The translations under genes and the position numbers were made by a program. The notes beneath the pieces were generated by a model. That model was not told where the DNA came from. It saw only the letters and a list, made by a program, of their open reading frames with translations, and did not search any database. This document shows positions 15,349 through 54,485 of a DNA stretch of 64,000 bases, one piece after another. Source of the DNA: an uncultured Bacilli bacterium (lineage in GTDB: Bacteria > Bacillota_I > Bacilli_A > RF39 > UBA660); assembly GCA_934101185.1 (NCBI GenBank), contig CAKOQD010000001.1, forward strand, positions 25,681 through 89,680, given 5' to 3'. How positions within the stretch are numbered: position 1 is the first letter of the stretch; each line of letters opens with the position of its first letter.

Positions 15349-15423
15349 AATAACCTCCTAAATTACAAAATTAATTAACTACATCAACAGAGCAAGACTG
15401 GACTTTGAAAAGACCCTATAAGC

Positions 15424-15945
15424 GACCTTTTATTTTTAACTGTGTCTAAGCCTATGATAAGACCTATCATCTACATTAATTGTAATATATTTCTTGCTTT
15501 TTTTCAATACTATTTACTCATTATTTTCAACCAAATATTTTGTTATTCTTTCTTCATGAATATTAACTAAATCTTTTAATATATTCTTCCAATTATTTGT
15601 TCCTTTATTCCATTTTTCTTCTAATTGTATCGTCCATAAATAAAGCACTCTCATTAAACTTTCTTTATTTTCAAACATTCCCTTTCCATTTGTTACTCTT
15701 CTTAATGCCGAATTCAATGATTCTATTGGATTTGTTGTATATATTATCTTTCTTACATTTTCTGGCACTTCAAATAATGAATAAATATGTTCTATTGAAA
15801 GTTCTACTTGTTTTAAAACTATTTTTTTATCTTTATACTTACTCATAAACTCTTTATACATTTCTTTTGCTTCTTCTAAATTATTTGATTGATATATCTT
15901 TTTTAATTAATTAACCACGTCAAACACAGATAAGTGGAAAGGGTC
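15424..15945. mobile_element. decayed IS256-family element (internal deletion derivative) bounded by imperfect terminal inverted repeats
   Basis: GACCTTTTATTTTTAACTGTGTCT (15424 onward, plus strand) matches GACCCTTTCCACTTATCTGTGTTT (15945 downward, minus strand). It matches the copy at 25111 downward (GACCCTTTTCACTTAACTGTGTCT) even better. Only the C-terminal third of a transposase lies between the repeats. Confidence 0.6.
15514..15906 (-). pseudogene. IS256 (Mutator-type) transposase, C-terminal fragment
   Basis: 'LKKIYQSNNLEEAKEMY...IYTTNPIESLNSALRRVTNGKGMFENKESLMRVLYL' matches the conserved C-terminal block of IS256-family transposases. The N-terminal and DDE regions are missing. Confidence 0.7.
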
Positions 15946-15948
15946 AGC

Positions 15949-18603
15949 CTAAGCACCAGCTCCAAGAAGGACTGCACGAGCAGAGTTGCTAGCGTTCGCG
16001 CCACCTTCGCCGCGGTAGAAGTTGAAGGCGCCGGCGTTAGCACCATCAAAGTAGTAACCGCCGCGCACAACCCAAGGGTAGTTAGAGAACACGAAGCTGG
16101 CGTTATCTTCATACCAGTTAGCTGTTCCACCTGTAGGAGCCATTTCTTTTGTTGCATCTCCTAATTTTCCTCTTGTATATTCTGTCCCACTTGTTCCGTA
16201 ACTATATTTGTCATAATACTTAGCAGTAGGGAATGCGTATGTTCCTGTTAATGATGTGCCATCATATAAAATTCCTGTAAATGCTGAATTATATGATGAT
16301 ACATGTCCACTCATTTGTTGTCCATTTGGATATACCATATTACCCATCATATATTCATATGCTCCACCACTCATGTCATATACTCCATATACATTTCCTG
16401 TAGTACTTGCACTTTGTCCTAATGCTGTTGTATATGAATTACATGTTGCACCATTTGATGTAGATCCTTCACTTTGTGGTCCACATCCTGTTGTATATGT
16501 ATTTGCACTATTTATTGCTACTTCTTTATTTATTCCATATTTACTATGTGACAAGTATACTACTGCTCCCCATTCTATATTCTTCATCATATGAGCTTCA
16601 TCAGTTGTTGCAAATCCATATTGGTTTCCTGATTCATTCATCTTTTGGATTCCATTAAAGAATGTTCCTACTTGTGCTCCTCTCCATGATGTTACATTGG
16701 GTAATATTCTCGGTCTTATTGTTTGTAAGTTACATCCTGAACCTACTGCTACATTTTTTGATACTGTACAACTAGTATCACTTGATACTTCAAACTTACC
16801 TACCCAGATTCCTGTTAATTCTTCATTTTTTTCTCTTACGTTGTTATCATTCTTATCCCACCAGAATGCTGGATGAGTATATGTAGAAGTTCCTGCTTTT
16901 AATCCTCCATTTATACTATCAGTACATGTTTCACTTGTACTACTAGTCCCTGTTACTGCATCAGTACACTTTATTGTACCAGTACTTGCTGTACTACTTT
17001 CAAACTTTATTTGTATTTCTTCTGGTGTATTTGTATTTAAATAAGTATAAGTATACCTTGGTACCCATACCCACATAGTATTAATACCATCCATTGGTAT
17101 CTCAGTACCAGCCTCTGCATTAAGTAAATCACTACGAGTACCAGCACTAACCATCTTATACTCATCAACCTTAGTAATAGTATTAGAAGCACTAACTATC
17201 TTATAAACACTAGTACAAGAAGTATCAGATCCATTAGGACACACATACTTACCAACTAAACTACTAGATATTGCACTACTAGTAGGACTAACCAAATCAT
17301 ACTTATTAGTACTAGTATTATAATTAATACCACTTCCAACTTTAGTACTATAAACAGTAGATGTTGTCTCACCACTTGCAGTCCAATTCTGACCAGATGT
17401 ACCACCAGCAGTAGCACTATCAGTATAAGTTACATGAGAATTACTAGGATAAGTAAAAGTATCCAAAACACCATTATCATTATTTTTATTGACACTACTA
17501 TCTTTTGCATACTTAACAGTAATTAAATAAACATCTCCAACTGCAGCAGTGTCTGAATAAGTATTACTATTGGTACCACTTATAGCATTAGCAACAGTAG
17601 TAGCACTACCACCATTCTTTGCAACTGTAACAGTCAATTTATCATAACTTGCCTCACTAGATACAGTAGCTTTAAATCCAAAAGTACCAGCAGTATTAAT
17701 ATTAACAGTTATTTTTGACATACTATTAGCACTATTAATATTATAACCACCACTTGTAAAAGAAGTATAAGTCTTATACTGATTAGAAGTACCAGAAATA
17801 GAAACCGTCTTATTACTTGTAACATCTTCCTTTTTAATATTCTCATCAACAGTCACAGCATTAGCCCACATCTTTTTATCATAATCATACCATTTATTAT
17901 TACTATCAATATTATTTACATCTGCTTTCTTCCATACATCCTTAGTGCTATCATAATAAACTGGTATCATATTACTAGATAATACTGGTTCATTTGCACC
18001 ACTATTATCTAAATTACCTACAATTTCACTAAAATACTGCTCAGCCTCAAGCTTCAACTTTAAAAATACTTGTTGTTCAGATATCTCATCTAAATTAGCA
18101 TCTTCACTAATCCATAATCTTAATTTATATGTGTCTTTTTTACCTGTTCTTAATTCTTTTTCATTTAATAAATCATCTAATTCTGACAATGTAAGTGGTC
18201 CAATTTCTTTACCATTTACCTCTAAACCTATCTTAATTAATCCTTTATCTAACAAAGTTCCAGTATAAGACGCTTTACTTGCCTCATCATCTATTAATAA
18301 AACTTTATACATTGCATTAGCACTACCAGTATTCTCTACCGTAAAACTATAAACATCTTCCTGAAGCAGTCCATCAACATCAGACATAGAACTAAGTCCT
18401 AAATCTATACCAGTTGATGGTTCAGTAAGAACAACTTCTAAACTACCAAGTTTAACTATTTGATTGTTTGAATCAGTAGTAGTCCCTGAAAATATCGCAT
18501 AAGACTGACCTACTAAAATAAGACAAAGCCCAATCAAACCTACACCAAATAATATAACTGATAATTTTGTTTTTCTATTCAAACTTAAAAATCTATCAAT
18601 CAT
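15949..18603 (-). CDS. secreted protein with TasA-type N-terminus, central beta-rich insert and C-terminal FGE-sulfatase/C-type-lectin-like domain carrying VR1 (DGR target-like)
   Basis: The FGE-like blocks are 'GIWVGKFEVS', 'HMMKNIEWGAVVYLSHS', 'GNVYGVYDMSGGAYEYMMGN' and 'PWVVRGG'. The N-terminus has a TM helix followed by 'GQSYAIFSG...LGSLEVVL'. The likely start is ATG at 18603 after GAGGAT; the track start at 18630 is a TTG. Confidence 0.8.
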   Translation of the reverse strand: MIDRFLSLNRKTKLSVILFGVGLIGLCLILVGQSYAIFSGTTTDSNNQIVKLGSLEVVLTEPSTGIDLGLSSMSDVDGLLQEDVYSFTVENTGSANAMYKVLLIDDEASKASYTGTLLDKGLIKIGLEVNGKEIGPLTLSELDDLLNEKELRTGKKDTYKLRLWISEDANLDEISEQQVFLKLKLEAEQYFSEIVGNLDNSGANEPVLSSNMIPVYYDSTKDVWKKADVNNIDSNNKWYDYDKKMWANAVTVDENIKKEDVTSNKTVSISGTSNQYKTYTSFTSGGYNINSANSMSKITVNINTAGTFGFKATVSSEASYDKLTVTVAKNGGSATTVANAISGTNSNTYSDTAAVGDVYLITVKYAKDSSVNKNNDNGVLDTFTYPSNSHVTYTDSATAGGTSGQNWTASGETTSTVYSTKVGSGINYNTSTNKYDLVSPTSSAISSSLVGKYVCPNGSDTSCTSVYKIVSASNTITKVDEYKMVSAGTRSDLLNAEAGTEIPMDGINTMWVWVPRYTYTYLNTNTPEEIQIKFESSTASTGTIKCTDAVTGTSSTSETCTDSINGGLKAGTSTYTHPAFWWDKNDNNVREKNEELTGIWVGKFEVSSDTSCTVSKNVAVGSGCNLQTIRPRILPNVTSWRGAQVGTFFNGIQKMNESGNQYGFATTDEAHMMKNIEWGAVVYLSHSKYGINKEVAINSANTYTTGCGPQSEGSTSNGATCNSYTTALGQSASTTGNVYGVYDMSGGAYEYMMGNMVYPNGQQMSGHVSSYNSAFTGILYDGTSLTGTYAFPTAKYYDKYSYGTSGTEYTRGKLGDATKEMAPTGGTANWYEDNASFVFSNYPWVVRGGYYFDGANAGAFNFYRGEGGANASNSARAVLLGAGA
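15952..16119 (-). other. DGR-type variable region VR1 (3' end of 15949-18603)
   Basis: The patch is about 55-60% G+C by eye. It encodes NWYEDNASFVFSNYPWVVRGGYYFDGANAGAFNFYRGEGGANASNSARAVLLGAGA. Its differences from VR3 follow an NNC-codon pattern (see findings). Confidence 0.7.
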
Positions 18604-18702
18604 AATATCATCCTCTATCGTTACAATCAATACTATTATCTAATATATATGATACCACATTTAATAATTCAAAACAAGAAAAAAAGACAAAGTATTAAAA
18701 CT

Positions 18703-23940: not shown

Positions 23941-24013
23941 TTAGTGAACGGATGTGAACGGTACTGAACGCTAGTGAACGGTACTGAACGCTAGTGAACG
24001 GTACTGAACGCTA
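23941..24013. repeat. phased tandem repeat: TGAACG x7 at exact 10-bp spacing (20-bp unit GTGAACGGTACTGAACGCTA x3)
   Basis: Read directly from the sequence: TGAACG ends every printed 10-nt block from 23941 to 24010. The array is GC-richer than its flanks and lies about 75 nt upstream of the tex start. Confidence 0.9.
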
Positions 24014-24096
24014 GTAACTAACCACCTTAAGAAGATCAAAGTATAATAAAAGAACTTAGTTTGGTGAAACACAAGTTCTTCTATATAAAATAACAC

Positions 24097-24367: not shown

Positions 24368-24991
24368 CTAAATCACTTTTAATATTTCCTTTAAATATAA
24401 TAATATTGCAAAATCAGAAAAATCAGAAGTTACTCTTTTTCTTTTTGATATTATAACCGGATCAAATGTCCCTTTCCTATCTCTTGGCATATCTATTGTT
24501 ATTTCTCCTGAACTTGTTTTTATTTTCTTTCCTTTTGATGAATGTCCATTTTTCTTATTCGTTATTTCTTCTTTTGTTTCTAATGTATACAATCTTTTTA
24601 TCTCTTCAGGCATTTTATTTTTATATGTATCTGCAAAATAAGGAAATGTTTTATCTATTAGTTTAAATAAATCTGGCATTACCTTTACTCCTTGAAAAGT
24701 CAATTGTGCCGCTCTTTTTCCTTTTTCTTCTCCAAGTGTTATATAAAGCACTTTTTCTGTTCCCCTTCTTGATATATTTTTAAATTGTTGCATCCAAAAG
24801 TCAGTATCATAATTTACATCTATACCATATGTTAAAAATCTTCTTTTACCTTCAATCGTTATTCCTATAAAAGTATACATGTCTCTTGTTCTAACCCTTC
24901 CTTCGACTTCAAGTTGTACTGGTGTCTTTATCGTATAAATCACCACATACATCCTATCTAACTCTCTATATTTTAGTTTCTTTAATTCCAT
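24368..24991 (-). pseudogene. scrambled or degenerate IS256-family transposase remnant
   Basis: Residues 1-140 resemble the central DDE region ('GRVRTRDMYTFIGITIEGKRRFLTYGI...FWMQQFKNISRRG'), but the Asp positions are not conserved. They are followed by an N-terminal-type block ('IDMPRDRKGTFDPVIISKRKR'). This order is impossible for an intact gene. The likely start is MELKK at 24991 after GGAGGGAGG. Confidence 0.55.
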
Positions 24992-25010
24992 TTTCTTTTC
25001 CTCCCTCCAT

Positions 25011-25043
25011 AAAAAAAACTTAATCATTTTTTAGATGATTAAG
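25011..25043 (-). terminator. intrinsic terminator after the 25119-27824 gene
   Basis: CTTAATCAT / ATGATTAAG 9-bp stem followed by T8 on the minus strand. One arm is duplicated at 25050-25060. Confidence 0.6.
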
Positions 25044-25071: not shown

Positions 25072-25111
25072 ATTAATTAACCACGTCAGACACAGTTAAG
25101 TGAAAAGGGTC
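25072..25111. mobile_element. IS256-type terminal inverted-repeat copy abutting VR2
   Basis: The minus strand reads GACCCTTTTCACTTAACTGTGTCTGACGTGGTTAATTAATTAA. This is near-identical to the repeat at 15945-15905 and inverted relative to the one at 15424-15447. Confidence 0.55.
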
Positions 25112-25118
25112 GACTTCG

Positions 25119-27824
25119 TCAGTCCAGAACACCAAGCACGGCACGAGCAGAGTAGCTAGAGTCCGCGTGACCATCGAATCTGTCGTAGGAGAACGCGCCG
25201 GCTTTAGCACCACTGCCACAGACCCCACCACGGAAGAACCAAGGGGCGGAACGGCTAGGAAAGGCAACGTAATCTCCATACCATGAAGTAAAGTCAGATG
25301 AAACTGGAGCCATTTCTTTCGTTGCATCTCCTAGTTTTCCTCTTGTATATTCTGTATCTCTTGTTCCATAACTATATTTATCATAATATCTCTTACTTGG
25401 GAATGCATATGTCCCTGTAAATGATGTATTATCATTTCCTAAGTATCCAGTAAATGCTGAGTTATATCTACTATCTGTTGAATCACCACTCATTTGTTGT
25501 CCATTACTCCATACCATGTTACCCATCATATATTCAAGTGCTCCACCATTCATGTCATATACTCCATATACATTTCCTGTAGTACTTGCACTTTGTCCTA
25601 ATGTTGTTGTATATGAATTGCATGTTGCACCACTACTTGTTGAACCTGCACTTTGTGGTCCACATCCTGTTGTAAGTGTATTTGCACTATTTATTGCTAC
25701 TTCTTTATTTATTCCATATTTACTATGTGATAAATATGTTACTGCTCCCCATTCCATATTCTTCATCATATGTGTTTCATCAGTTGTTGCAAACCCATAT
25801 TGGTTTCCTGTTGCACTCATCTTTTGTATTCCATTAAAGAATGTTCCTACTTGTGCTCCTGTCCATGATGTTACATTTGGTTTTATTAATGGTCTTATTG
25901 TTTGTAAGTTACATCTTGAACCTACTGCTACATCATTTGATGCTGTACAACTAGTATCGCTTGATACTTCAAACTTACCTACCCAGATTCCTGTTAATTC
26001 TTCTCCGGTTTCTCTTACGTTGTTATCATTCTTATCCCACCAGAATGCTGGATGGGTATAAGTAGAAGTTCCTGCAACTAATCCATTATTTGTTGCATCA
26101 GTACATGTTTCACTTGTACTTGATGTTCCAGTAACATTATCAGTACATTTTATTGTACCAGTACTTTCTGTACCTTTTTCAAACTTAATCTTTATTTCTT
26201 GTGGTGTATTTGTATTTAAATATGTATAAGTATATCTTGGTACCCATACCCACATTGTATTAATTGCATCCATTGATATTTCAGTACCAACTTTTGAATT
26301 AATTAAATCATTACGTGTTACGGTCTTACTTTTATACTCATCAACCTTTGTAATACTACTAGAAGCAGTAACTATTTTATAAGGTGTAGTACAAGACAAA
26401 TCAGAACCAGTAGGACAAACAAACTTACCTACCAAAGAACTAGATACAGAAGACAAACTAATATTTTTAAGATCATATTTACTTGTAGAACTATTATAAG
26501 AAATAGAACTTCCTACTAAAACACCAGTACCACCAGTAATTGCTCCACTAGCAGTCCAATCTTGTCCAGAAGTACCACCAGCAGTAGCACTATCAGTAAA
26601 AGTAACAACACTATTCGCAGGATACGTAAATGTATCTAAAATAGCATTATCATTATAAGTATTACCACTACCATCTTTAGTATATTGAGCAGTTATAACA
26701 TAAACATCTCCAACTGCTGCAGCATCAGAATAAGTTTTACTAACATTATTACCACTTATTGCATTCGCAACAGTAGTAGCACTACCACTATTTTTACTAA
26801 CAGTAACAGTTAATTTATCCCAATTAGCTTCACTTGAAACAGTAGCCTTAAATCCAAAAGTACCAGCAGTCTTAATATTAACAGTTATCTTAGTATAACT
26901 CTTAGCATTATCAATATTATAACCCCCACTAGTAAAAGTAGAAGGAGGAACTGAAGCAATAGTTTTATTAGAAATAGAAACACTCTTATTCTTTGTAATA
27001 TCATCAGCTCTACTTGAAGAAACAACAGTTACTGCATTAGCCCACATCTTGTTATCATAATCATACCATTTATTAGCTTCTTTAGCATTATTACTATCAG
27101 CTTTCTTCCAACTATCACTAGTACTATCATAATAAACTGGTATCATATTTGATGTAAGTTCTGGTGCATTTGCTCCACTTGTATCTAATTTGCCTTCAGT
27201 AGTTTGCTCACTATATAATTGAATCTTATAACTCATTATAGTATTTTTATTTTTAACATTATAACTATTCGGAGTATCATAATCCAACCATAATTTCAAT
27301 TTATAAGAACTACTAGCAGACCTCTCTAATAAACCAGAATCAAGAATTATATTACCATCACTATCAACTTTTACAACTTTAAAATCTTCTCCATCTTTAC
27401 TTATACCAGCTTTAACATATTGAGCAGGAATACAAACATCAGCATTAACCGAAGAATCTCCTACTGTATAAGAATTACCAACAGTACAACTATTAATAAG
27501 AGACAATTTATATTTAGCATTAATACTACCAGTATTCTTTAATGTAAAATCATAAGTAGTACTATCACTAAGAGCCACATCATCCGGAGTAGGAATAGCA
27601 TTATTAACACTAATAACTGGAGTAGTATTTTCTAATGTTATTACCAAACTACCTGCACTAATAGTATTAATAGACTGAGTATAAACACTTTTAAATATAA
27701 AAGCATAAGATCCTCCGACAAATATAAATAATATAGAAATAATACCCAATAAGAAACTAATCTTAACACCAGGATTATCCTTATATTTTACCTTTAACTT
27801 ATCAAACTTATTAAAAAAATTCAT
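25119..27824 (-). CDS. secreted protein with TasA-type N-terminus, central insert and FGE/C-type-lectin-like C-terminal domain carrying VR2 (DGR target-like)
   Basis: 901 aa; paralog of 15949-18603, sharing 'KWYDYDNKMWANAVTV', 'NTMWVWVPRYTYTYLNTNTP' and 'GNVYGVYDMNGGALEYMMGN'. Confidence 0.8.
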   Translation of the reverse strand: MNFFNKFDKLKVKYKDNPGVKISFLLGIISILFIFVGGSYAFIFKSVYTQSINTISAGSLVITLENTTPVISVNNAIPTPDDVALSDSTTYDFTLKNTGSINAKYKLSLINSCTVGNSYTVGDSSVNADVCIPAQYVKAGISKDGEDFKVVKVDSDGNIILDSGLLERSASSSYKLKLWLDYDTPNSYNVKNKNTIMSYKIQLYSEQTTEGKLDTSGANAPELTSNMIPVYYDSTSDSWKKADSNNAKEANKWYDYDNKMWANAVTVVSSSRADDITKNKSVSISNKTIASVPPSTFTSGGYNIDNAKSYTKITVNIKTAGTFGFKATVSSEANWDKLTVTVSKNSGSATTVANAISGNNVSKTYSDAAAVGDVYVITAQYTKDGSGNTYNDNAILDTFTYPANSVVTFTDSATAGGTSGQDWTASGAITGGTGVLVGSSISYNSSTSKYDLKNISLSSVSSSLVGKFVCPTGSDLSCTTPYKIVTASSSITKVDEYKSKTVTRNDLINSKVGTEISMDAINTMWVWVPRYTYTYLNTNTPQEIKIKFEKGTESTGTIKCTDNVTGTSSTSETCTDATNNGLVAGTSTYTHPAFWWDKNDNNVRETGEELTGIWVGKFEVSSDTSCTASNDVAVGSRCNLQTIRPLIKPNVTSWTGAQVGTFFNGIQKMSATGNQYGFATTDETHMMKNMEWGAVTYLSHSKYGINKEVAINSANTLTTGCGPQSAGSTSSGATCNSYTTTLGQSASTTGNVYGVYDMNGGALEYMMGNMVWSNGQQMSGDSTDSRYNSAFTGYLGNDNTSFTGTYAFPSKRYYDKYSYGTRDTEYTRGKLGDATKEMAPVSSDFTSWYGDYVAFPSRSAPWFFRGGVCGSGAKAGAFSYDRFDGHADSSYSARAVLGVLD
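25122..25283 (-). other. DGR-type variable region VR2 (3' end of 25119-27824)
   Basis: GC-rich patch encoding WYGDYVAFPSRSAPWFFRGGVCGSGAKAGAFSYDRFDGHADSSYSARAVLGVLD. It keeps the same invariant skeleton (W, PW, RGG, GA.AGAF, SARAV) as VR1 and VR3. Confidence 0.65.
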
Positions 27825-37675: not shown

Positions 37676-40600
37676 ATGTCTATTGATCCACAAACACAAG
37701 ATATTAATCGTGCTTTATATGAACTAGTAAAGAATCAAATAAAACCAAGTGATTATTCACTAAAAATGGCTGAAATATATTCTGATAGATTGTTTGAAAT
37801 ACCTAAAATTGAAAATTATGATTATAATGAAATCAGATTAAGAGATATGAAAATAAACTTTAATGAAGGTAAAGTCAGTTTAAAAGAAATTGTCAGGAAT
37901 TGGGAATTATTTAAAGACAAAGATTTAAGTTATTGTTTATTAAATGATGAGAATAATAAAAATAATATTATAGATAGTTCATTAAAAAAATTTATGAATA
38001 ATTATGGTACATTAGCGCCTTTAATAGTAGAAAATAATGATATATATACATTTATTGATACCATTTCTAATACAACTTCTGACGAGGAAAAATATAATTA
38101 TTTAAAACAATTTACTGATGATATATTAAGCAATACTTATAGAAAATATGGAGATTACAGACCACCTATTGAACTAACAGATGAACAATTTAAAGAAATA
38201 TTTAAGTACTCATCAATGGAAGAATATTTAAAAGTATTTAATGAATATAGTGCAATACCTGTAATAGAAGAATTAAAAACATTACCCCAAGACTATATTT
38301 TCAATATGTCAATTCCGTTTCAAGAATTATTAAACTCTGATGTTTTATCTTTCATTGGCACATATGGATTAAAAAACATTGTTGATTTCGATAATGAATG
38401 TGGTCATTTCTTCACAAAAAATAATTGTGAAATGTTAAAGCTGATGGATGATATGTATTTACATTATTCAAATAATGAACATGATCCTAATAAAACAATC
38501 CATACAAAAAAGTATAAAGATGAAAATGGTAATTATATTGATAGACCATATACTAAAGATGAATTCTATGAAGCAATGAAAAGAATGATAATATATGGAC
38601 CTAGTGATTGGAATTATGTTGATAAAGCTCCAGATTATAGAGATATGACAGGAGAATTCAGAACTAGAAATACAGAGTTATTTATTTCAGAAGAAGCACC
38701 AGAAGATTTACAAAAAATGTTTTATACAAAGTCTATTACTCCTCGACTATTATTAGAGCATCCAGAATATATTCAATTCTTAAACGGAAAAGATTTAAGT
38801 TCATGTTTAAAAAATAGAGACATACAAGTCAAAGGCAGTAATGCATTAGATGGATATGAGAATATTTATAAATTCCTAGGTAATAAAACTGACTTTAATG
38901 GAGTTATGAATTTTATTACTGAATACAGTGATGTTTTAGATATTGTCTTCAATAAAAGAATACCAGGCTACTATCAATATGAGATAGAATTTTCAATTAA
39001 TGATGATATAGACCAAATTCAAAGCAAAATTCATGAAACTTTAAGAAAACTTATTATTGAAAAAAGATTGACTTATCCTACACATATTCCTAAGAATTTA
39101 AGCGAAAAATATCCAACTATGTTTTTAGATAAAAATGCACCTCAAGAATTACAAGAAGCTTTTTATAGTAGAACAATATCATCAGAGTTTATTTTGTCAA
39201 ATCCATCATATAGAGAATATTTAAAAAATGTTGATTTAGAGGTTTTATTTAAATATATGCCTGTAAACATTGCAAATGAAGAAGATAGATATGAACAAGT
39301 TAATTTAGTTAGTGGTATTAAACAAATATTCGGTTCAGATGATGCCTTTGATGTAATGTCTATATATGGAAAATATATTGAACAAGTATATGAGGCAAAT
39401 AACCTTAAAAACTTCTTATATAATCCAGAGTTTACGCAAGATGGTTTTCTTGATGAACTTGATAAAACCATATTACAGAATATTATTGATGGAAATATGA
39501 AGTACGATGAGAATATTCCCAGTCATTTCAAAAATAATAATCCAACTTTATTCTTAGGAGCAAATGTGCCACAAGAAATAAAAGATAAATTCTATAATAG
39601 AGAATTTACATTAAAAGATTTTAACGATAATCCAGAATTATTAAATATATTTGAAAATACGAATATAGCATGTGCTTTTTCAGAAAATATGTCTTGGATT
39701 ATTCCATTATTTAATGATTCTGAAAATTTTAAAACTGGAAACTATAATCGTATGAAAGTTATATCAGAATATTCTAAAATACAAGATGTTGAACTTCAAA
39801 AAGAATTTAAAAAATATGTTATAGAATTTAAAACTAACATTAATGTAGAAAAAATAGAATATGTTTCAGAAGTTTTGTCAAGACTTTCATTATCAAATTC
39901 AAGTGAAATATTTACATTTAGAAAAGAACTTGCTACGCAAATATTAAAATCTAATAATCCTTTAGAAAGCTTAGGTAAGATCGAAGATATATTTATAAGA
40001 AATAATATTCCAACAGTTGGTAAAATATATTCTTGCTTTGAAATACTACATCCAGATTTTCAAGGTTTTAATTTTGAAAGTTCTATGGTTTCACCAGTAT
40101 TAAAAAAGTCATCAACAAAAAATAAAAAAATAATAGTTTTTTCAGATTTAATAAAATGTTCTTTCGGATCCAATAATAAGTCTGTTAATGCATATTTAAA
40201 AAATATAGAGTTTGGTTCTAGTCTATATGAAAGTATAAAAACTGGACAAATTCAATTTGATACACTTGGTGAAATAGAAAAAAGAAAATTAATAATATTT
40301 AGCAATCATTTGGCAACATTATATAATAATACAATGAAAGCAAAAATGGGAAACGAAATGTTTATATCTAGTGGAGATGTTTTAAATGATATTTTAGAAC
40401 TTTCAAAAAAACTCTCTCCAGATGGGACATTAGATTATAATTTAGCAGATAGAGTTATTCGAATGTTCTGTGGATTTACTGGAATTGACACATTAGAACA
40501 AGCTAAAGAATTTATTGAACAAAAAGTTAAAACAGCTGATTATAGAAATAGACATGCTTCTAACTCAGATATGATATTAGAGCAAGGAGATTTCATTAAA

Positions 40601-42019
40601 GGAATTGGCGATATTAAATATTTAAGAAATATTTTACAAAATGGTAGTGTTGCAAAAGAGTACTTAGGTTCAAGTGCTACTAGTGATGCAACTCCACTTG
40701 ATACTGATATTTCAATGATAATGAGTTCAGACGGAACAATAAGTGAAAAAATGGGTGCAACTATGGCTTCAAGTTATGGGCCTATATGGTTTGTACTTAA
40801 AAATGATGATAGATTTATGACTACTAGAACTAGTAGTGAAACATTAGAAGCAAAAAGAGATATATCCAAAATGGAGGTATTTTATACAGGAATTTTAGGA
40901 CAAGGACATTATGGAATTAGAACAGGTTTTGCTTCAAGTGAAATTAATTATATTGTTATGGAAAACTATGATCCAAGAGTTGGATTAGAAATAGCAATGA
41001 ATGGCTTTTACATTCCTGTAGCTAATAAAGAAGGTAAAATTGTATTTACTCCAAAAGATTATGATGAATTAAGAACTAAAATGAGTGGTTTATCGTATTT
41101 TGATGAGAATAATTATACTTTCTCTGAAAATCTAATTACAGAAGAAACAGAATATTTTGCCGAGCAAATAGAACAAAGCAATTATGAAGTTCAAGCAAAA
41201 AGAGAAAAGATTAATAGTATTATTAAAAAATCTCTTGAAGAATTAGGATTGCATTTAAAAACTAATATTGATGGTAATTTAACCGAAGGATTTGTAGAAT
41301 TAATTGATACTGGTTCAACTGGAAGAGGAACAAATAAACCTGGCGATGGGGATTTTGATTTTATGATGAGATTGGATAAAATAATATTATCAAACCCTTC
41401 TAGACTAAATGAATTAAAACAAACTATATTAAGAAATCTTGGTAGAGAAAATTCCTCTGAATTAACAGGAACTGGAGATTTTAGATTAAAGAGTGTTCAA
41501 ATAGATAGCAATACAAGTGTAGATATTGATATTACATTTACTGAAAAAACAGATAAAGTATCGTATTCTACTGATATGGCATTACAAGATAGACTTGCTA
41601 CTATTCAAAGAAATGACCCTGAAAAATATAAATATGTTGTTGCCAATATATTATTAGCTAAACAAGTACTTAAAAAAGCCGAAGCATATAAACCTAATCG
41701 TGGTGAAATTCCTCAAGGTGGTTTAGGTGGAGTTGGAATCGAAAATTGGATTCTTCAAAATGGTGGTTCATTCATTGATGCTGCTAAAAGTTTTGTTGAG
41801 TCTGCTAATGGAAAAAGTTTTTCAGAATTTCAATCAACTTACCAAATATGGGATTTTGGAGAAAATCATCTAGCCGAAAGAAGAGGATTATATTCACATG
41901 ATAATTTTGTTTCAAATAATATGAGTGAAGCAGGATATCAAAAAATGGTTCAAGCTTTAAAAGAATATTTAAAATCTATGGAGATTTCACAAATAGATAC
42001 TGAAACTATAAAACGATGA
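37676..42019 (+). CDS. giant (1447-aa or longer) cytoplasmic repeat protein with C-terminal Pol-beta-superfamily nucleotidyltransferase domain
   Basis: 'DTGSTGRGTNKPGDGDFDFMMRLD ... SVDIDITF' is the NTase G[ST]x9-13DxD signature plus a third Asp. Three units of about 145 aa repeat ('AP(E/Q)(D/E)LQ..FY(T/S)(K/R)(S/T)I...'). The frame is open upstream to 37448, and an RBS plus ATG lie at 37412 in the same frame, interrupted only by TGA at 37445. Confidence 0.8.
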   Translation: MSIDPQTQDINRALYELVKNQIKPSDYSLKMAEIYSDRLFEIPKIENYDYNEIRLRDMKINFNEGKVSLKEIVRNWELFKDKDLSYCLLNDENNKNNIIDSSLKKFMNNYGTLAPLIVENNDIYTFIDTISNTTSDEEKYNYLKQFTDDILSNTYRKYGDYRPPIELTDEQFKEIFKYSSMEEYLKVFNEYSAIPVIEELKTLPQDYIFNMSIPFQELLNSDVLSFIGTYGLKNIVDFDNECGHFFTKNNCEMLKLMDDMYLHYSNNEHDPNKTIHTKKYKDENGNYIDRPYTKDEFYEAMKRMIIYGPSDWNYVDKAPDYRDMTGEFRTRNTELFISEEAPEDLQKMFYTKSITPRLLLEHPEYIQFLNGKDLSSCLKNRDIQVKGSNALDGYENIYKFLGNKTDFNGVMNFITEYSDVLDIVFNKRIPGYYQYEIEFSINDDIDQIQSKIHETLRKLIIEKRLTYPTHIPKNLSEKYPTMFLDKNAPQELQEAFYSRTISSEFILSNPSYREYLKNVDLEVLFKYMPVNIANEEDRYEQVNLVSGIKQIFGSDDAFDVMSIYGKYIEQVYEANNLKNFLYNPEFTQDGFLDELDKTILQNIIDGNMKYDENIPSHFKNNNPTLFLGANVPQEIKDKFYNREFTLKDFNDNPELLNIFENTNIACAFSENMSWIIPLFNDSENFKTGNYNRMKVISEYSKIQDVELQKEFKKYVIEFKTNINVEKIEYVSEVLSRLSLSNSSEIFTFRKELATQILKSNNPLESLGKIEDIFIRNNIPTVGKIYSCFEILHPDFQGFNFESSMVSPVLKKSSTKNKKIIVFSDLIKCSFGSNNKSVNAYLKNIEFGSSLYESIKTGQIQFDTLGEIEKRKLIIFSNHLATLYNNTMKAKMGNEMFISSGDVLNDILELSKKLSPDGTLDYNLADRVIRMFCGFTGIDTLEQAKEFIEQKVKTADYRNRHASNSDMILEQGDFIKGIGDIKYLRNILQNGSVAKEYLGSSATSDATPLDTDISMIMSSDGTISEKMGATMASSYGPIWFVLKNDDRFMTTRTSSETLEAKRDISKMEVFYTGILGQGHYGIRTGFASSEINYIVMENYDPRVGLEIAMNGFYIPVANKEGKIVFTPKDYDELRTKMSGLSYFDENNYTFSENLITEETEYFAEQIEQSNYEVQAKREKINSIIKKSLEELGLHLKTNIDGNLTEGFVELIDTGSTGRGTNKPGDGDFDFMMRLDKIILSNPSRLNELKQTILRNLGRENSSELTGTGDFRLKSVQIDSNTSVDIDITFTEKTDKVSYSTDMALQDRLATIQRNDPEKYKYVVANILLAKQVLKKAEAYKPNRGEIPQGGLGGVGIENWILQNGGSFIDAAKSFVESANGKSFSEFQSTYQIWDFGENHLAERRGLYSHDNFVSNNMSEAGYQKMVQALKEYLKSMEISQIDTETIKR

Positions 42020-54308: not shown

Positions 54309-54485
54309 TATAATTTGCTATTCAATCAACACGATGAAACCAAAAATGAAAAGGAAAAGTACGAAAGTTGTAAAACATTTTTTTCCTTTCTTTCTATTTT
54401 GCTGTGCCAGTTCTTTGAACTGGGTCAGTTTGGGAGAAAAAAAATAACAATTAGTTTATCATCTCCAAAGGAGCCACTGACTTCG

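Follow-up and report, generated by a model that had tools for sequence, protein, structure and literature searches.

Genomic setting of P1 and its variable region

The 64-kb stretch of DNA analysed here (the window; contig CAKOQD010000001.1 of an uncultured Bacilli bacterium) is a segment of a low-GC (~28%) Firmicute chromosome. Core genes for LeuRS, Tex, FtsA/FtsZ, PPDK and SpoIIIAH are found in it together with three paralogous genes for large surface proteins, P1, P2 (25119–27824) and P3 (54486–56918). We concentrate on the 3′ end of P1, which bears a candidate variable region (VR1) of the type rewritten by diversity-generating retroelements (DGRs) and lies next to a remnant of an insertion sequence (IS) of the IS256 family.

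P1 occupies 15949–18603 on the minus strand, between the LeuRS gene and a gene for a 182-residue protein, and encodes 884 amino acids. Its open reading frame (ORF) runs over 15949–18630, and the likely start is the ATG at 18603, which is preceded by the ribosome-binding site AGAGGA. The protein begins with a signal or anchor sequence of the ...SYAIF type and ends in a domain resembling C-type lectins (CLec) and formylglycine-generating enzymes (FGE), in which VR1 lies; the exact protein is also present in public assemblies. The last ~170 nt of the gene form a GC-rich island within an AT-rich gene. Blastn inside the window finds this tail twice more, in both cases at the 3′ end of a paralogue: in P3 (54485–54723, 81% identical) and in P2 (25134–25370, 69% identical). 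The corresponding variable regions are VR3 (54489–54644, minus strand), which serves here as the comparison copy, and VR2 (25122–25280, minus strand).

The codon pattern of VR1 follows the adenines of a template repeat

A preliminary description of the locus had aligned VR1 with VR3 by hand and reported about 18 codons that differ while the third base is kept. In a computed alignment of 56 codons, from AAC TGG TAT (16119) to GCT (15952), exactly 18 differ at position 1 and/or 2 and keep the third base. The alignment contains all 13 of the 13 codon pairs given as examples, and the skeleton described as invariant (WY, PW, RGG, GAxAGAF, SARAV and GCAGTCCTTCTTGG) is present in both copies. The 14-mer GCAGTCCTTCTTGG, for which 0.12 chance matches are expected, is confined in the window to VR1 and VR3. 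Nine more codons, absent from the hand alignment, differ at the third base alone; all but one of these changes are synonymous and most lie in the 3′ third of the variable region. By codon position the differences split 14:12:9, which is not in itself significantly non-uniform (chi-square p=0.58). Compared with the 317 codons upstream in this pair of paralogues, which split 32:31:60, the differences are shifted away from the third position (p=0.02).

The substitution spectrum becomes unambiguous when a template repeat (TR) is used as the reference. We scanned a collection of species-representative genomes with an 18-nt degenerate pattern which, with 17 specified bases, was too short and returned 118 loci, nearly all of them chance matches in GC-rich genomes. 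The two relevant loci, L095 and L107, come from a related low-GC metagenome-assembled genome (MAG), CAKOIB01 ("uncultured Bacilli bacterium", Hadza gut). L107 contains, at 824–982 on the minus strand, a non-coding AAC-rich repeat. It has 37 adenines in 150 nt, mostly in AAC codons, and is collinear with VR1 and VR3, the codons that vary in these being AAC or AAT in the template. Its 5′ part reads GCC AAC TTC GTG AAC TCT AAC AAC CCT TGG GTT CTG CGC GGC GGT and continues AAC TAC AAT AAT GGT GCT AAC ...; its 3′ part reads AAC AAC TCC GCC CGC GCA GTC CTT CTT GGG GCC GGC GCT CTG GAC.

The alignment to this TR also refines the extent of VR1. The preliminary description had placed it at 15952–16119, of which 15952–16101 (150 nt, GCC AGC TTC ... 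GGT GCT, minus strand) is collinear with the template. The first six codons, AAC TGG TAT GAA GAT AAC (16102–16119, minus strand), lie 5′ of the matching span, as homology to the TR begins at ..AC GCC. The GC content of VR1 is 0.59, against ~0.28 for the genome.

Differences from the TR concentrate on its adenines. VR3 is changed at 18/37 adenines and 1/113 other sites (Fisher p=3.6e-12), VR1 at 18/37 adenines and 11/113 other sites (Fisher p=1.4e-6), and the variable region of L095, from the same MAG as the TR, at 25/37 and 4/113. When VR1 and VR3 are compared with each other, they are unlike at 23/37 TR-adenine sites and at 10/113 others (p=2e-10). Among 91 members of the family, codons with a TR adenine in position 1 or 2 have a residue entropy of 2.86 bits, and the other codons one of 1.08 bits. 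In the DGR mechanism, reverse transcription of the TR RNA is error-prone at adenines and the variable region is replaced by the resulting cDNA (PMC3240598), so that NNC codons come to vary at positions 1 and 2. Because the differences of both VR1 and VR3 fall mainly on adenines of the L107 template, the comparison supports reading the NNC pattern of VR1, as the preliminary description proposed, as a probable footprint of adenine mutagenesis by a DGR, with a template that is known from a related genome and not from this one.

An IS256 remnant has displaced the native 3′ flank of VR1

VR1 ends in GCT TAG GCT followed by GACCC..., which places an IS end 3 nt after the stop codon, as had been described. 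VR2 and VR3 do end in CTG GAC TGA, the end that VR1 was thought to have lost. The hairpin said to follow both is whole at VR3 only, that of VR2 being cut by an IS end after CGAAGTC.

The element beside VR1 is a 522-bp remnant (15424–15945, minus strand) whose interior is deleted and whose two terminal inverted repeats are kept. The left repeat (IRL), GACCCTTTCCACTTATCTGTGT..., lies at 15915–15945, and the right repeat, GACCTTTTATTTTTAACTGTGTCT from 15424 when read on the plus strand (GACCTTTTATTTTTAACTGTGT), lies at the far end; both are imperfect and start with GACC. Between them is a 115-residue transposase fragment (15514–15861, minus strand) that matches positions 294–378 of 379 of Transposase_mut (PF00872, E=2.6e-15). 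It also matches NF033543 (IS256 family) with E=1.6e-16, at 60 bits against a full-length cut-off of 150 bits. The assignment to IS256 thus draws on a transposase of which a fragment is present, on the inverted repeats and on a target duplication of the 8–9 bp class; an autonomous element would be ~1.3 kb long and have its transposase whole, and no such element is present here, the inverted repeats being 522 bp apart.

The borders of the remnant tell what the IS did to P1. On the gene side lies GCTTAGGCT (15946–15954, minus strand), which comprises the last codon, the stop and three further nucleotides and corresponds to the single-copy GCTTAGGGT of the IS-free locus L095. On the far side lies GCTTA[TA]GGGT (15413–15423, minus strand), a second copy decayed by a 2-nt insertion; the sequence there reads GCTTA(TA)GGGTCTTTTCAAAGTCCAGTCTTGCTCTG and is collinear with L095. 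GCTTAGG thus stands on both sides of the 522-bp remnant, as a decayed target duplication of ~9 bp. The adjoining 25 nt, CTTTTCAAAGTCCAGTCTTGCTCTG (15388–15412, minus strand), are homologous to the flank of the TAG-type variable region of L095, with 94% blastn identity between L095 4568–4598 and 15387–15418 of the window. The duplication and the collinear flank beyond the IS therefore argue that the old flank was displaced by 522 bp and that nothing was replaced. The IS inserted into GCTTAGGGT at the P1 stop codon, with a duplication of ~9 bp.

The TAG stop codon itself (15949–15951, minus strand) is native, because two IS-free loci end in the same way: L095 ends ...GGCGCT TAG GGTCTTTCGAAGTCCAGTCTTGCTCTG and L131/P0076 ends ...GGCGCT TAG T.... 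GAGA-TAG is therefore a native type of 3′ tail, found in several family members and not made by the IS.

The VR3 end has the 3′ recognition module expected of a DGR target, a GC-rich end of the IMH type (initiation of mutagenic homing) with a hairpin. DNA folding places the hairpin, ACTGAC-GAA-GTCAGT, at 54476–54490 (minus strand), where it overlaps the TGA stop and consists of a stem of 6 bp closed by a C(GAA)G loop. The folding energies are small and do not stand out from those of shuffled sequence (VR3 z=-1.1), and our argument is based on position and on the C(GAA)G motif, not on energy. VR1 lacks this module, its tail departing from the TR after GCAGTCCTTCTTGG, and DNA folding finds no VR3-type hairpin in either its present flank or the reconstructed pre-IS flank, where the 5′ arm is GTCTTT.

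Probable drift of VR1 out of step with the template

The preliminary description suggested that VR1 may be a frozen copy. Ten non-adenine differences are private to VR1 relative to the TR and VR3; nine of them affect codon position 3, eight are silent and seven go from GC to AT, and the P1 protein is still intact. The third-position divergence between VR1 and VR3 (9/56) equals the paralogue background (60/317 in the upstream codons). As regular rewriting would hold this value near zero, VR1 appears to have been unsynchronised with the TR for a long time. A TR that disagreed with VR1 at non-adenine positions had been named as evidence against the adenine footprint, and with 11/113 such mismatches this is partly the case.

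We compared the tails of eight variable regions of the VR1/VR3 backbone over the 103 non-adenine sites up to CTTCTTGG, and agreement with the TR tracks tail integrity. VR3 and L125, with an intact TR-like end and the CGAAG hairpin, mismatch the template at 1/103 sites, and L095, with a TAG tail that keeps CGAAG, at 3/103. The other tails are altered to a greater extent: VR1 (TAG tail and IS) and L132 (hairpin lost) each have 8/103 mismatches, L121 (altered tail and a solo IS end) 9/103, L124 (truncated tail) 10/103, P0076 (TAG tail, no CGAAG) 11/103 and L122, whose tail is truncated and whose GC content is down to 0.41, 41/103. The series agrees with the Bordetella phage system, in which the 3′ hairpin was required in experiments (PMC3240598). 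The IS is not needed to explain the drifted state of VR1, because IS-free variable regions are as far out of step with the TR. The idea of a frozen VR1 is thus partly supported by its private, mostly synonymous changes. On these comparisons VR1 is likely to be frozen, for broader reasons than the IS.

VR1 lies at the C terminus of a predicted C-type-lectin fold

In single-sequence searches none of P1, P2 and P3 has a match in Pfam, in NCBIfam or among the sequences of the Protein Data Bank (PDB). The family of P1 is nevertheless large, with 7,252 clusters at E < 1e-5 (counted as clusters at 90% identity) or 3,212 clusters at 50% identity. An AlphaFold2 model of the last 283 residues of P1, built from a diverse alignment, has a mean per-residue confidence (pLDDT) of 94.5 and a predicted TM-score (pTM) of 0.92; with 38 close homologues only, pLDDT fell to 37 and the model was unusable. 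Foldseek gives a single significant match to this model, TaqVP (5vf4), the DGR variable protein of Thermus aquaticus (E=3e-7, probability 1.0), followed at non-significant E-values by Mtd, TvpA and FGEs; the TM-scores are modest, at 0.44–0.48. A profile of the family searched against PDB sequences likewise has TaqVP 5vf4 as its sole match (E=0.004), and weak matches to PF03781 are found in 14/74 family representatives. VR1 is thus predicted to be at the usual site of a DGR variable region, the C terminus of a CLec/FGE-like fold.

The family also has features at its N terminus. A prepilin-type N-terminal methylation motif (PF07963) is present in 14/74 representatives, and the window paralogues (P1, P2 and the ORF at 28013–29482) carry ...SYAxF or GTYAF signal-anchor motifs instead. 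Candidate signal-peptidase genes lie at ~48.6–50.1 kb, and their orthologues at L125 have weak precomputed S24/S26 matches, which hints at a dedicated secretion or assembly route for the family.

A past DGR target and its alternatives

We consider it probable that VR1 is a past DGR target with a native TAG tail, into which an IS256 element was inserted later, and that it is no longer rewritten and has drifted. On this account, mutagenic retrohoming from an AAC-rich TR once rewrote the CLec/FGE-like domain at the C terminus of P1, whose native end is ...GAGA-TAG. An IS256-family element later entered GCTTAGGGT at the stop codon with a target duplication of ~9 bp and has since decayed to the 522-bp remnant, leaving both inverted repeats. 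Since the last homing event VR1 would have accumulated changes by drift, at sites other than adenines and mostly silent, with the protein remaining intact. The likely cause of the arrest would be a defective 3′ recognition end, that is, a divergent IMH-like tail without a hairpin and then the IS, and not the IS alone.

Several observations weigh against this reading. The TR is known from a different, though related, genome: blastn for further tail copies finds no TR in the window, which also has no RT-like ORF (RT, reverse transcriptase) and no YxDD-bearing ORF of RT size. There is likewise no RT on the 17-kb MAG contig that carries the TR, nor in any fetched locus. The target duplication is imperfect, with one substitution and a 2-nt insertion. 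The expected contrast of a static VR1 with a varying VR3 is not seen across strains. Strains with an identical VR1 are 99.5–99.9% identical overall and so uninformative on stasis, VR3 is nearly invariant in 11 protein variants, and a strain diverged by 1.3% has one VR3 difference, at an adenine site in a locally conserved region. The whole DGR system may therefore be inactive here.

The explanation offered in the preliminary description, that VR1 first ended in CTG GAC TGA with a hairpin and that the IS replaced both, made the TAG and froze VR1, has in its favour the IS end 3 nt past the stop, the missing hairpin, and the fact that at VR2 the same IS does cut into a VR3-type hairpin. At VR1, however, GCTTAGG is duplicated around the remnant, the flank beyond it continues exactly as in GCT TAG GGTCTTTCGAAGTCCAGTCTTGCTCTG of L095, and the IS-free P0076 ends in GCT TAG too, which makes the TAG and its hairpin-less tail older than the IS; we regard a replacement as very improbable. 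We give still less credence to an origin without any retroelement, in which diversifying selection acting on ligand-contact residues drove the paralogues apart and the GC-rich tail is an inherited peculiarity of composition. Such an origin would accord with the lack of an RT or TR in the window and with the non-significant 14:12:9 codon-position split, but it leaves unexplained the non-coding AAC-rich copy in a related genome, the concentration of differences on its adenines (23/37 against 10/113) and the identity of VR3 with the TR at 112/113 non-adenine sites, and the predicted fold matches that of DGR variable proteins.

Another possibility is that VR1 is still an active target of a different TR elsewhere in the genome (a variant of the L107-type template or an older allele), in which case its non-adenine differences would reflect the template and not drift. 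At least two variable-region backbones do exist in the lineage, that of VR2, L128 and L130 and that of VR3, with a mosaic at L121. Some of the bases specific to VR1 (GGC, GCG, TCT GCT CGT) also occur in the second backbone, and its GC content is still high, at 0.59. Yet the overlap of its mismatches with that backbone, 4/10, is not above chance (P=0.12; third positions P=0.38), and most of the private changes are silent and run towards AT, as is expected of drift at a genomic GC content of 28%. No other variable region with the backbone of VR1 was found among the loci compared, and VR1 itself has no hairpin and has 522 bp of IS between its end and its native flank. We therefore judge continued rewriting from a second template to be unlikely.

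Surroundings of the template repeat

On the L107 locus (MAG CAKOIB01 contig 14, 16001–17143) the TR is followed by ~300 nt of non-coding DNA and then by an AI-2E-type permease gene, with no RT gene. The other 15 kb of the contig are without an RT, and only 160 nt of the contig lie upstream of the TR. For a DGR it would be unusual to have the TR apart from its RT in this way. A homologue search from the permease gene returned three poor homologues and no route to an RT. The TR was not found in metagenome contigs (two exact-pattern scans) or in viral contigs (an exact-pattern scan), and a protein-based scan of viral contigs gave no match. Downstream of the P3 orthologues there is no TR or RT, and spoIIIAH follows directly in all of them.

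In the window, a segment 3′ of VR3 (54318–54368, minus strand) shares homology with the stretch that directly precedes the TR in the MAG (blastn, 93–100% identity; compared over L107 1002–1135). It is followed by the spoIIIAH intergenic terminator and spoIIIAH in place of a TR, with TTATAAA at the junction. Because of this match, a TR may once have stood next to VR3 and since been lost; the segment suggests either a former VR–TR cassette with the TR deleted or a recombined cassette fragment.

A second backbone and further IS copies

VR2 is of the second backbone type, which is common to L128 and L130 and reads TTC CCT .. CGT ... TCT GCT CGT GCC GTG CTT; it is found in VR2 and in P3 orthologues of other strains. 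From these alignments the backbone implies a second type of TR. The variable region of L121 is a mosaic of the two backbones (GGG GCC TGT GGC AGT). A comparison of VR2, whose hairpin is cut by an IS, with L128 and L130 for extra private drift at third positions gives 5, 10 and 5 changes, respectively, and is uninformative.

A second copy of the IS found beside VR1 has its left end (25081–25111, minus strand) directly against VR2, after TGA CGAAGTC, at the position of the VR3 hairpin. This copy (24368–25027, minus strand) is rearranged: its 219-residue ORF has matches to the middle and to the N-terminal part of the IS256 transposase, in a scrambled arrangement, and no right inverted repeat was found on it. 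An orthologue of P2 in another strain (L132) is followed by different genes, so the IS beside VR2 probably mediated a rearrangement. In L121 (6660–6720), the altered tail of the P1 orthologue is directly followed by a solo left end.

Comparison of the left ends (25081–25118 and 15915–15954 in the window; 6660–6720 in L121) thus places the same IS256-family end at three DGR target ends with three different junctions: after TAG GCT at VR1, inside the CGAAG hairpin at VR2 and after the altered tail at L121. At all three the IRL is next to the variable region. This arrangement may indicate that the IS favours DGR target ends for its insertion, or it may be coincidence; a preference of the IS for DGR target sites because their DNA is structured or nicked is doubtful. 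If there were one, the IS would be a natural off-switch for individual DGR targets and the family a comparative series in which the integrity of the 3′ end predicts agreement between variable region and template.

Other features of the window

A fourth GC-rich patch (28105–28195, minus strand) lies in the ORF at 28013–29482, which encodes a 490-residue secreted protein with only a weak DUF6273 match. Differences between this ORF and the cluster member P0317 are almost confined to a patch of ~30 codons (QVSGNSFNVFDVRSNCYVYDLSSVNGYEH versus QNSGNAYDAFLVFSRGCVSSTSFSNNVF) bordered by the invariant EWLLPQ and AVRPVLYL. The patch has the appearance of a DGR-type variable region of a second class, served by a template of its own.

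A 1,447-residue ORF without a Pfam match (37676–42019, plus strand) is on the strand opposite to most genes of the window. A perfect 20-bp tandem repeat (GTGAACGGTACTGAACGCTA, 3.1 copies; 23954–24015) lies between the degraded IS beside VR2 and the Tex gene.

Discussion

The P1 system resembles the DGRs of Bordetella phage BPP-1 (Mtd), Treponema denticola (TvpA) and Thermus aquaticus (TaqVP, the best structural match) in having its variable region at the extreme C terminus of a CLec/FGE-like domain and an AAC-rich TR whose mismatches fall on adenines, with an excess of non-adenine mismatches in VR1. It also shares with them a GC-rich 3′ end and, at VR3, a short hairpin after the stop codon. 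The hairpin here has a 6-bp stem and a 3-nt GAA loop, compared with the phage consensus of a 7–10 bp stem and a 4-nt GRNA loop (PMC3240598). Unlike those systems, the targets here are large (800–900 residues) chromosomal proteins of low-GC gut Bacilli with SYAxF-type signal peptides and no Pfam family. There are several paralogous targets, scattered among core genes, with no RT, Avd or TR in their vicinity; the TR of the related MAG, too, has no RT gene after it.

IS256-family elements typically make duplications of 8–9 bp. The remnant beside VR1 is like them in its transposase fragment (PF00872; NF033543), its imperfect inverted repeats starting with GACC and its direct repeat of ~9 bp. It is unlike them in being a non-autonomous 522-bp remnant that keeps only the last ~85 residues of the transposase and has a decayed duplication.

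Surveys of DGRs reportedly note degenerate or inactive target copies, whose variable regions are unlike their TR at non-adenine sites. VR1 fits this description in keeping its adenine-site footprint while having accumulated non-adenine mismatches, and among its orthologues the variable region of L122 is further decayed (GC 0.41, 41/103). In contrast to those copies, intact and damaged 3′ ends can be compared here side by side in one protein family. VR1 would then be an ordinary DGR target, fossilising on a chromosome next to an IS256 remnant, in an unannotated family with a CLec fold.

These results correct a plausible but wrong account of the damage done to P1 by the IS. They also carry a warning for annotation, in that a clean NNC footprint does not mean that a variable region is currently active. 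The family provides a small natural series that fits the rule from the Bordetella phage: variable regions with an intact 3′ end and hairpin match the TR, and those with broken ends have drifted. More broadly, the footprint and the predicted fold would place the surface proteins of a very large and unannotated gut Bacilli family in the class of C-type lectins diversified by DGRs.

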